A stretch of DNA of 64,000 nucleotides, taken from NCBI GenBank assembly GCA_050115495.1, contig JASFQK010000003.1, positions 96,001 through 160,000 on the forward strand, given 5' to 3'. Source of the DNA: Phycisphaerae bacterium. Lineage in GTDB: Bacteria > Planctomycetota > Phycisphaerae > UBA1845 > Fen-1342. Below are positions 36,381 through 39,586 of this stretch, in pieces; positions within the stretch are counted from its first letter, which is position 1; every line of letters begins with the position of its first letter. The position numbers and the translations under genes were made by a program. A model generated the notes under the pieces. It saw nothing but the letters and a program-made list of their open reading frames with translations, had not been told where the DNA came from and searched no databases.

Positions 36381-36481
36381 CAACGCCGCCCCGCCCGCTG
36401 GTGTCTCTTCGGTGGTGGACCCGCCACGTATCTCGCGTCGCCGCTTTCGAAGGCTGGTGTGGCATAGGCCAATGGCCTGTG
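36381..36481 (+). repeat. Left copy of ~100-bp inverted repeat flanking the NLR-like locus
   Basis: 36453-36481 is the exact reverse complement of 39451-39479; similarity extends ~70 bp outward. Confidence 0.85.
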
Positions 36482-36626
36482 ATCTTCATGCGGGGGCGGG
36501 GGTCAAGAGTCTCAAGGGGCTCATGCTGGCGCGCGCCGTAAATGAGACTCTTGGCGGTTCGGTGGCGGCGGTGGGGCGTTGCGGGAGGCGCTGGGTTGAG
36601 CGGGTGTGTGTTGGTCATTGTGGGCG

Positions 36627-36693
36627 AGCCATCAGCCTTCAGCCGTCAGCCTTCAGCAACAAGCCTTGAGCCTTGAGCCTTGAGCCGTGAGCC
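36627..36693. repeat. Heptamer tandem repeats (AGCCNTC / AGCCTTG)
   Basis: 7-bp periodicity; the first 31 bp are identical to 52271-52301. Confidence 0.85.
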
Positions 36694-36861: not shown

Positions 36862-39238
36862 TCACGCCTTGAGCCGCGCGCGAATAGCGTCTACGTAGGC
36901 AGCGTCCTTCTCGGCGTCGGGGTGCCCGACCTCACGCTCGTAGTCCACGCAGACTTGCATCAGCTCGATCGCCCGGGGCGAATCGCCGAGCTTCTCGCAC
37001 GCCAAACCCGCGTTCCAGGAGGCAACGGCCTCGCCACGCCGATCGCCGATCTCGCGGGCGATGGCCAGTTGCTGCTCGTAGAACGTGATGGCCCGGCGGG
37101 GCTCGCCCAAGGCGGCGTAGGCGATGCCCAGGTTGCCCAAGGCGGTGGCCTCGCCCCGCCGGTCGCCGATCTCACGCATGATTCTCAGTTGATGCTCGCA
37201 GAACTCGATGGCTCGGCGAGGCTCTCCCAAGGCGGCGTAGGCGATGCCCAGGCTGCCCAAGGCGTTGCCCTCGCCGCGCCGGTCGCCGATTTCGCGTGTG
37301 ATCGTCAGTTGTTGTTCGTAGAACTCGATGGCGCGACGGGGCTCGCCCAAGCTGTAATAGGCGTTGCCCAGGTTGCCTGAGTCGGCGCCCTCGCCGCGTC
37401 GGTCGTCGATCTCGCGATCAATCGCCAGGGCCTGCTCGTAGACCTCGATGGCCCGGCGGGGCTCGCCCAAGTCGGCGTAGGCGAGACCAAGGCTGCCGAG
37501 ATGCACGCTCTCCGCGCGCCTGTCAGCGAGTCGCCGGGCAGCGGAGAGGGCTGCTTCACGCCACACGATCTGCTTGCGGCCATGTTGGCGTAGATCGAGG
37601 CAATAGGCACCGGCGTTTGGGTAGTCGCTGCACAGGCGCGCGGCCGCATCATCCGCGGCGGCATGCGCCTGGGCCCAGGCGAACCCGGCTGCGATGTTCG
37701 GCCACTCCACGTCGAACAGCGCCAGTCCCTTGGTCACGCCTTCAGCGCTGCCGAGGTAGAGACGCTTGGCCGCCGCGGCGACTCCGTAGTAGTGCGCCGC
37801 GTGACGCTGCTGGGCCGCCGACCGCTCGTCATCCGCGAGTTGCTCGCCGGCGTAGAGGCGGACGAGGTCGTGCAGCCGGTAGCGTCCAGTGGCTTCGTTC
37901 AGATTGAGCACGCTGTAGTGCAGCAGATCGCCGAGCATGTTCTGCGCGCGGTCCGTCTCCACGCCCCAGACGGCCGCCGCCGCTGGCAGGTCGAACGTGC
38001 CGGGGAAGATGGACAACGCATACCATGCACGACGCAGTTCATCCGGCAACGGCGCGTCGCTCAAACGAAGCGAGGCGGCCACCTTGTCCAGGTGCTTGAG
38101 CCGCTGCTGTTCGTCGGTCAGCCGGCGCACGTAGTCGTCGGGCGACAGGTTTCGCCGTCCGGCCAGCGCGCTGCCGGCCAGCCGCAGGGCCAGCGGCAGA
38201 CAGCCGCATAGCTCCGCGATCTGCTCCGCAGCATCGCCGATACGCGGGCAGATGCGCAGCAGCAGGTCGCGTGCGTCCTCCGGTGACAACGTATCCAGGT
38301 TCTTCACATACAGACCGGGTAACGTGAACTGCTGCCGCGATGTGACCAGCAGCACGCACCCCGCCGGCGGTGGCGCCAGCGGCTCAAGCTGCTCCGCTTC
38401 GGCGGCGTTGTCCATCAGCAGAAGGACACGCTTCTCGTGTAGCGTGGAGCGGTAGAGCCCCTGTAAGGCCGACACGTCGTCCGGCAGCTTCGCCTCAGGT
38501 GTGAAGCTGAGAATCACGTGCCGCAGTGCGTCGGCCGGCGACACCGGCGTTTCCTGCGTGCCGCGGAGATCGAGGTAGATCTGTGCGTCGGGGTGCTGGC
38601 CGTCCAGCCGCTCGGCGAGCGCGAAAGCCAATTCGGTCTTGCCGATTCCGCCGAGCCCTTGCACGCCGGTGATGGCCACGCCGCCGGATTGCAGCTTTTC
38701 GAGCAGCTCGTCGATTTCGGCGGTGCGGCCGGTGAAGTCCGTCACGGGGGGGGCGGAGTTGGTGCAGGGTCTGAGTGGGGAGGTCGAACGAGTAGTGGTG
38801 CCTGAAGATATCCGGGTGTTGGCCGTACAGGGTGAGGATGTCATCCCAGAAGGCGACTTCCACGGTGAAGGGCTTGCGTTCATCCTCGTTGAACTGCCGG
38901 ACGAATGCCTGGATCGTTGCGTCACGGGGGGCCGTAGTAGCCAGAATGAAGCGAGCGATGCGAGGCTCGAACTGGGTGGCCTTCTTGATTTCGCCCCGTA
39001 GTTCCTTCTCTGCGGCGGCAGCGCTGAGATTGCCCTCGTGTAGCTTGCATTGGACGCCGTGATAGTCGTCGCCATGCGGCTGGCCGTAGATGTCCACGCC
39101 GTGCTGCGGCTGGCCGGTGCGGCCGTGCATGGAGGCTCTGGTTCCCCAGTAAGCCTCGTATAGATCGCGCATGTTGCGTTCGAAGCGCTGCCAGTTTTTC
39201 GGCGGTGGGACCTGCATGGAAGACGAACGAACACCCAT
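36862..39238 (-). pseudogene. NLR-like STAND protein (Mrr-like nuclease + NB-ARC + TPR), frameshifted at a C8 tract (38746-38753)
   Basis: Frame 1: PPPKNWQRFE..GRTGQPQHGVDIYG..GVQCK..TLHQLRPP. Frame 2: PPVTDFTGR, GLGGIGKT, LLLMDNA, GCLPLAL, LHDLVR, TPRs. Removing one C fuses the two frames. Confidence 0.85.
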
Positions 39239-39359
39239 GAGAGACCTGCCCTCAGATCGCCCCGCGTGGTCGAAGCAGAATGACAATCGTCCCGGAAGAT
39301 AGGCCCTGCCGACCCGCGGCTCGGCGAAGGGTAGTGTAGCGTGTTTGTGCGGGGAGGGA

Positions 39360-39396
<37 letters not shown>

Positions 39397-39450
39397 GTTG
39401 CGGGGCGGGAGTGGGGAGGGGGGCGTGGGGTTGCGCCGCGGCGGGTGGAA

Positions 39451-39586
39451 CACAGGCCATTGGCCTATGCCACACCAGCGGCCACGCGGCGATGCGAGAG
39501 ATCAGGCCGGCCCCGCGGCGAAGAGACACAGGCGGATGGGGCCGGGTTGCGCCGGCACTGGTGGGCAAGCCACCAGTGGCACCCGG
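39451..39586 (-). repeat. Right copy of the inverted repeat flanking the NLR-like locus, followed by a TGCCACTGGTGGCTTGCCCACCAGTGC element
   Basis: Reverse complement match to 36381-36481, and of 39555-39582 to 9275-9302. Confidence 0.85.

Follow-up and report, generated by a model that had tools for sequence, protein, structure and literature searches.

A C8 homopolymer frameshift between the nuclease and NB-ARC/TPR parts of an Avs-like gene in a Phycisphaerae bacterium: probable recent loss of one of two copies rather than an evolved switch

In the 64,000-nucleotide (nt) stretch of DNA analysed here (the window; positions 96,001 to 160,000 of contig JASFQK010000003.1 from a Phycisphaerae bacterium, G000:C3:96001-160000 in our numbering), a gene on the minus strand carries a predicted N-terminal nuclease and a C-terminal NB-ARC/TPR sensor, which are parted by a run of eight cytosines (C8). 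It was originally predicted that this homopolymer frameshift separates the effector from the sensor of one ancestral fused gene, and the reading frames, the Pfam matches and the alignment to a paralog in the same genome all confirmed it. The run was also proposed to be an ON/OFF switch, with a recent inactivation or a sequencing indel as alternatives. We consider it probable that a recent replication-slippage mutation in the C8 run inactivated one of two redundant Avs-like copies, and that the run is not an evolved switch; recent inactivation is the best fit of the possibilities raised in the original prediction.

The C8 run lies at window positions 38753..38746 of the minus strand (G8 on the plus strand), which reads CAACTCCG-CCCCCCCC-GTGACGGAC, with the codons CTC CGC CCC CCC C GTG at the junction. 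Across CAACTCCG-C8-GTGACGGAC, the homology passes from the frame of the Mrr-like nuclease to the +1 frame of the NB-ARC/TPR part, and a codon-usage frame model showed that the coding potential moves to the +1 frame at the tract. The nuclease frame starts with the ATG at 39238, reads ...TLHQLRPP through C8 and is then followed by 83 codons that are out of frame, up to a stop at 38495-38497. The open reading frame (ORF) that contains it (38495..39286, minus strand) reads ...FDLPTQTLHQLRPP, followed by an Arg-rich stretch without homology, so that the tail and its stop (38495..38746) overlap the start of the NB-ARC coding sequence. The +1 frame (ORF 36862..39234, minus strand) reads ...APPVTDFTGRTAEIDELL... 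(PPVTDFTGR) and remains open until the stop at 36862-36864. The earlier claim that the nuclease frame ends exactly where the NB-ARC frame begins therefore holds for the homology, which ends at C8 where the +1 frame takes over, but not for the frame itself, which continues for 83 codons. Just 3' of the tract, a GTG (38743..38745, minus strand) is a possible restart codon for an effector-less NB-ARC/TPR protein; the 627-amino-acid (aa) gene call on record for this contig, P0001, starts there and begins MTDFTGR. No Shine-Dalgarno-like purine run was seen upstream of this GTG on inspection of the sequence, and a promoter and terminator scan around the gene returned nothing informative. An in-frame CCCC is also present earlier in the nuclease frame, at P104.

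As wrong frames also stay open for hundreds of codons in this genome, with its 67% guanine and cytosine (GC), the observation that both halves have no additional stops is weak evidence of intactness. The claim was upheld by comparison with a paralog. The genome is a 5.97-Mb draft in 85 contigs (92% complete, 66.7% GC), the public runs holding the gene are wetland metagenomes with no RNA run listed among them, and the closest named relatives of the gene are in Phycisphaerae metagenome-assembled genomes. Two more genes with the same N-terminal domain (N-domain) were found in the genome, one on contig C1 (N-domain 85% identical, open frame of 880 codons) and one on contig C30 (N-domain 29% identical, open frame of 843 codons). 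In a whole-genome scan there were only three NB-ARC matches, all in genes with this type of N-domain, and the one in the window is at G000:C3:134065-134724. The C1 paralog is a single ORF of 831 aa with the junction SLHQLRPPVADFTGRTAEIDELL, in which HQLRPPVADFTGR is encoded by CGC CCG CCC GTG, giving CCCGCCC (7 nt) against the C8 of the window copy.

In a global alignment, the window gene and the C1 paralog are about 90% identical. The gaps between them are one uncompensated 1-nt gap, located in the C run, a compensated pair of 1-nt gaps 4 nt apart, and an in-frame 120-nt gap corresponding to one 40-aa TPR unit that is extra in the C1 paralog. The only uncompensated frame-changing difference in 2.4 kb thus falls within the run, and the two halves are otherwise intact. 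Removal of one C from the window copy gave a computed product of 791 aa, in agreement with the single protein of about 790 aa that had been predicted for C7. Identity between the two copies was noted to be uneven (79-98% per 100 nt) when 37029-37497 was compared, and this patchiness suggests possible recombination or gene conversion between the copies.

The presence of the C8 run was checked in Logan contigs of three public runs, X1, X2 and X3. In X1, which accounted for 81% of the sampled words, a 198-nt contig with a depth of 17.2 spans 38676-38873 with 0 differences and no gap. Over the same span, 24 differences set the window copy apart from the paralog, and they lie to either side of the run; because these copy-specific differences flank the run, the contig belongs to the window copy and is not a chimera with the paralog. 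The depths of the paralog-type contigs in X1 (24.4 and 23.7) compared with 22.1 and 17.2 were as expected for two genes of one genome. In X2, which comes from another study, a 401-nt contig with a depth of 4 reads the whole C8 and ends 7 nt past the run, and was therefore not counted as bridging; in X3 there was no coverage at the tract. No indel variant at the tract was listed in the contigs at a minimum share of 1%.

The N-domain and its linker, LHQLRPP, occupy 38747..39238 on the minus strand (164 codons from the ATG that was aligned to the paralog start). In Pfam, these first 164 residues matched Mrr_cat with an E-value of 0.0097 and 16.5 bits, below the gathering cut-off of 21. Among 47 aligned homologues, Mrr_cat was matched in 31 (best 5.2e-06) and Mrr_cat_2 in 27, at E<=0.01. 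Eleven positions of the domain are invariant in the 47 sequences (G42, P44, Q45, H46, G47, D49, I50, Q63, C64, K65 and W131), and of these D49 and Q63-C64-K65 form a putative D...QxK pattern of the PD-(D/E)xK type. There is no NCBIfam model for the N-domain, and a profile search of PDB sequences with it gave only chance-level rows of LOV domains.

An AlphaFold model of the N-domain had a mean predicted local distance difference test (pLDDT) of 84.4 and a predicted template modelling score (pTM) of 0.80. Foldseek ranked proteins of the restriction-endonuclease fold first, namely MspJI and Avs4, at E-values from 2.5e-3 upwards. By using VIA-align, the model was superposed on AF1548 with a Z of 11.6 and a root-mean-square deviation (rmsd) of 3.0 A over 117 residues, and on residues 2-185 of Avs4 (8dgf_B) with the same Z and an rmsd of 4.3 A over 144 residues with 17% identity, while the cleavage domains of AspBHI, MspJI and FokI gave Z of 9-10. 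The N-domain is therefore modelled as a restriction-endonuclease-like fold with the D...(E/Q)xK residues present, and is predicted to be a nuclease.

The 629-residue C-terminal half matched NB-ARC (PF00931, E-value 5.5e-10, residues 10-228) above the gathering score, as well as TPR_12 (3e-35) and other TPR families. The NB-ARC NTPase lies at 38068..38724 on the minus strand in the +1 frame, with the P-loop GLGGIGKT and the Walker B motif LLLMDN. The TPR region, with tandem units of 120 nt (40 aa), lies with the stop codon at 36862..37497 on the same strand, and a 120-nt period was detected there in 3.8 copies at 37029-37484. The features of a STAND protein, an NTPase with Walker A and B and C-terminal TPR-like repeats, are thus present; the N-terminal effector is in one polypeptide with them in the paralog and six homologues, and in another frame in the window copy. 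The NB-ARC/TPR part shows a likeness to models of the AfsR, HaaT and FxSxx types, but its scores come nowhere near the cut-offs of these models. When both halves and the two intact paralogs were run through PADLOC (2023 library), only generic TPR models were matched and no curated Avs/AVAST model. We therefore describe the intact protein as Avs-like, without assigning it to any of the named Avs families.

Avs4 (PDB 8dgf) is built of the same three parts, with a Mrr-like nuclease of the PD-(D/E)xK type at the N-terminus, a STAND NTPase in the middle and a TPR sensor at the C-terminus. It differs in that the proteins of the window family have 791-831 aa compared with 1534 in Avs4, that their NTPase is of the NB-ARC type, that the neighbouring genes are housekeeping genes, and that the anti-phage role is predicted. 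Based on the layout, the fold and the Avs literature (including PMC13581612), the intact protein would act as an Avs-type STAND receptor, in which the TPR sensor would bind a phage protein. The NB-ARC domain would then oligomerise and bring the N-terminal nuclease domains together to cut DNA. In the broken copy, the nuclease would be made with an 83-residue nonsense tail and without a sensor, while the sensor, if made, would lack its effector, resulting in a non-functional copy.

To place the tract in its family, the N-domain was used to scan species-representative genomes (18 loci) and metagenomes (58 loci), giving 76 loci and, with the two paralog loci of the genome itself, 78. The best identities outside the genome were 71% in species-representative genomes and 66% in metagenomes, and no near-identical copy was found in either scan. 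In 6 of the 78 loci (L005, L008, L026, L027, L028 and L029), the N-domain continues in frame into NB-ARC through a [LI]HQL(R/P)..P..DFTGR linker. A conserved tract, for which the original prediction had looked to homologues, is absent from these: their Pro codons are a mixture of CCG, CCC and CCT, no C run is longer than 2-5 nt, and all six cross the linker unbroken in one frame. By sequence comparison, this shows the single-frame fusion to be the ancestral form and the tract to be new to the window copy.

The first Pro codon is CCG in the C1 paralog, L008 and L026, which indicates that the CCC of the window copy is derived. The tract therefore probably arose by a synonymous CCG to CCC change at this codon, which would have made a C7 run, followed by the gain of one C to give C8, or by both changes in one event. 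The CCC-CCC dicodon is avoided for Pro-Pro in this genome, with 2.4% observed and 8.1% expected in 1061 long ORFs.

In other loci, the N-domain is attached to quite different C-termini or stands nearly alone, for example in open frames of 196 aa (L015) and 261 aa (L010). Conversely, in the 845-aa protein P0008, an NB-ARC/TPR part that is 70% identical follows the linker LHQLRPP..DFTGR and an unrelated, non-nuclease N-terminal module. Since P0008 carries another N-terminal module on LHQLRPP, the linker is a module boundary where effectors are swapped. The module of P0008 is helical and possibly membrane-associated. In a related genus, a nuclease domain with 69% identity (L004/L007, G009:C9) is joined to another C-terminal part, about 130 residues long and unannotated, and the gene directly follows a P-loop protein that appears RepA-like from a reading of its sequence alone, which hints at a possible mobile-element context.

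The family appears to come and go, as the N-domain was found with this query in none of 6 same-genus genomes and in 1 of 24 same-family genomes. The metagenome homologue L029 (1766-3528; N-domain 51% identical) has a frameshift in the NB-ARC region with about 200 residues missing, and is thus a decayed copy. In a protein database search, identity above 71% was reached only by the genome's own two proteins among the best 120 of 5328 hits.

The age of the break was approached by comparing the window copy with its paralog. The ratio of nonsynonymous to synonymous substitution rates (dN/dS) was 0.37 for the N-domain, 0.86 for NB-ARC and 1.09 for TPR. High dN/dS in the sensor half is common for immune receptors, and alone it is no sign of decay. 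When amino-acid differences were polarised with the outgroups L008, L026 and L027, counting those where at least one outgroup agreed with one copy, the window-specific to paralog-specific changes were 12:13 in NB-ARC, 18:12 in TPR and 13:4 in the N-domain. The part 3' of the break therefore shows no excess of lineage-specific changes, which indicates that the frameshift is young or that the allele has been kept in use.

There is nothing unusual in a homopolymer frameshift that strikes an accessory gene of the defence type while its paralog stays intact. The window gene is like ordinary homopolymer-frameshift pseudogenes in that one indel alone disrupts it, that it has a redundant paralog, that its distribution is patchy and that a relative (L029) is decayed, and no difference from them was shown by the data. 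The presence of the intact paralog makes the loss tolerable without any switch. The C8 run should be hypermutable like any 8-nt G/C run, and reversion to C7 could occur; there is no sign of selected switching in the data.

Several points have to be set against recent loss. The dN/dS of the C-terminal half could reflect relaxed constraint or, equally, the diversifying selection that is usual for immune sensors, and the lack of decay fits a reversible allele in use equally as well as a very recent loss. The sole contig that bridges the tract is from X1, possibly the source sample of the genome, and is independent of the assembler, not of the reads. Contigs drop rare variants, so minority C7 or C9 molecules are possible. 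Finally, there is the precedent of pglX (Pgl/BREX type 2) in Streptomyces coelicolor, where G8/G7 changes switch defence at about 1e-2 to 1e-4 (PMC4365076).

One rival reading is that the tract is a contingency locus, in which a costly or autotoxic Avs-like protein would be under a selected slipped-strand switch; subpopulations would be OFF with C8 and ON with C7 or C10. Within an ORF, a C8 run is a classic substrate for this, being a hypermutable simple repeat; in addition, neither half is damaged, the C-terminal half has no surplus of changes, and the break falls exactly at the linker between effector and sensor. The likeness to pglX (PMC4365076) is that an 8-nt G/C run lies inside the reading frame of a gene for phage defence in a high-GC bacterium, and that the frame is toggled when the run goes from 8 to 7 or back. 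In pglX, however, G8 is ON and rates were measured, whereas the C8 of the window gene is the OFF state, its length did not vary in the contigs, and it is absent from all the relatives examined. A second comparison is glpK of Mycobacterium tuberculosis, in which reversible frameshifts in a homopolymeric tract are reported to cause transient loss of function (10.1101/717272). As in the window gene, the homopolymer lies in coding sequence and the genome is high in GC, but glpK has a metabolic role and its variants were found among isolates, whereas the window gene is known from contigs.

Conservation of the tract is the one testable feature by which a contingency locus can be told from an accident, and on this point the switch reading fails: neither the paralog nor any of the six fused homologues from the 78 loci has the tract, which arose through a lineage-specific synonymous change. 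Other evidence also stands against it: no length variant was present in the X1 or X2 contigs, no fused allele with at least 85% identity besides the genome's own paralog was found among the best 120 of 5328 hits, and the tract is about 490 nt into the gene, far from the 5' end. In a literature search on homopolymer phase variation together with STAND or anti-phage systems, no STAND or Avs gene was among the matches listed, and PMC13581612 has no mention of phase variation or pseudogenes, which is no proof of absence in print. We therefore regard the ON/OFF switch of the original prediction as unlikely.

Another explanation is that the genome in truth has C7 and an intact gene, the extra C being a sequencing or assembly artefact. 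Indel errors are most common at homopolymers, the genome is a draft of 85 contigs assembled from a metagenome, and the bridging X1 contig may share reads with the assembly. Against this, a separately built contig with copy-specific variants on both sides repeats C8, and the contig from the other study reads C8 up to its end. In addition, the record lengths of 151 suggest short reads, which would rarely miscall an 8-mer in the majority.

A genome-wide control was also made, in which both flanks of every run of at least 6 nt were scored with the codon-usage frame model, trained on 1061 long ORFs. A GC3-phase frame test was too strict, leaving most runs unclassified, and the codon-usage model was used instead; a listing of the best ORF over each run is blind to hidden frameshifts in a GC-rich genome and was not used as a control. 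With same-strand coding signal and open flank frames, there were 431 runs of at least 6 nt, of which 414 kept the frame and 17 changed it; at random positions there were 69 same-strand frame changes compared with 9255 where the frame was kept. Gene junctions, with the upstream frame ending at most 37 nt after the run, accounted for 14 of the 17 changes, and the remaining three were this site, one without support, and a split Peptidase_C1/lectin gene with a C6 run. The control argues against widespread homopolymer errors in the assembly, though this site is not the only frameshift. The artefact, for which the second run-associated frameshift also speaks, is thus decidedly unlikely.

The second frameshifted gene (L084, G000:C15:26735-29226) has its C6 run at C15:27148-27153. 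In Pfam, the Peptidase_C1 profile is matched at 1-43 in one frame and at 123-206, together with Lectin_like, in another, with the C6 run between them.

A further idea is a phase-variable receptor whose effector-less sensor in the OFF state (84% identical to the paralog) co-assembles with the intact paralog and tunes or poisons nuclease activation. If this were true, a bacterial NLR-like system would have a dominant-negative layer under the control of slippage; we consider this very doubtful.

It is also very improbable that a full-length protein is made from C8 by recoding, through +1 slippage of tRNA-Pro on CCC-C or through transcriptional slippage. CCC-C is a known +1-prone site in the EF-P/m1G37 literature. 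Here, the +1 shift would be needed at CCC CCC C, where the next codon CGT is a minor one (9.4% of Arg codons), and the product would hold LHQLRPPVTDFTGR. However, the two-frame layout is present in none of the six homologues, so that nothing is conserved or programmed, and no stimulatory element was identified; a recoding product would be at most a low-level by-product.

The least probable explanation is a two-protein system, in which a free nuclease and an NB-ARC/TPR sensor started from the GTG at 38745 would assemble in trans, for although P0001 starts at this GTG and stand-alone forms of the N-domain exist (L015 and L010), the 83-codon tail is out of frame over the P-loop region of NB-ARC with no coding signal there, the GTG is not preceded by a ribosome-binding motif, and no homologue is split at the linker.

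The genes neighbouring the frameshifted copy are housekeeping genes (a sulfatase, a Na+:dicarboxylate symporter, a glyoxalase-like gene and purD). An imperfect inverted repeat (73-85% complementary) lies on either side of it, at 36381-36498 and 39434-39549, and heptamer tandem arrays are found both downstream, with 9.7 copies of GAGCCTT (36626-36693), and upstream, with 4.9 copies of AGTCAGG (39360-39393). Copies of both the repeats and the heptamer arrays were found on many other contigs (297 blastn rows), and the upstream heptamer stretch had a depth of about 446x in X1 compared with about 20x for the gene. The flanking elements look like a genome-wide family of intergenic repeats and not a gene-specific cassette. 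A mobile cassette defined by the flanking inverted repeat was therefore rejected, as the elements are dispersed over many contigs.

If switching were shown, STAND receptors would join restriction-modification and BREX/Pgl systems as targets of homopolymer phase variation, which the present data do not support. With recent loss as the preferred reading, the analysis clears up the annotation of the locus, as two adjacent gene calls are one frameshifted Avs-like gene whose intact twin shows the native protein. It also documents a compact, uncatalogued family of nuclease/NB-ARC/TPR proteins in Phycisphaerae-like bacteria, with the conserved linker LHQL(R/P)PP..DFTGR. In a high-GC genome, the Pro-Pro of this linker is one synonymous change from a slippery C run, making it a plausible weak point for losing, and in principle for toggling, such genes.

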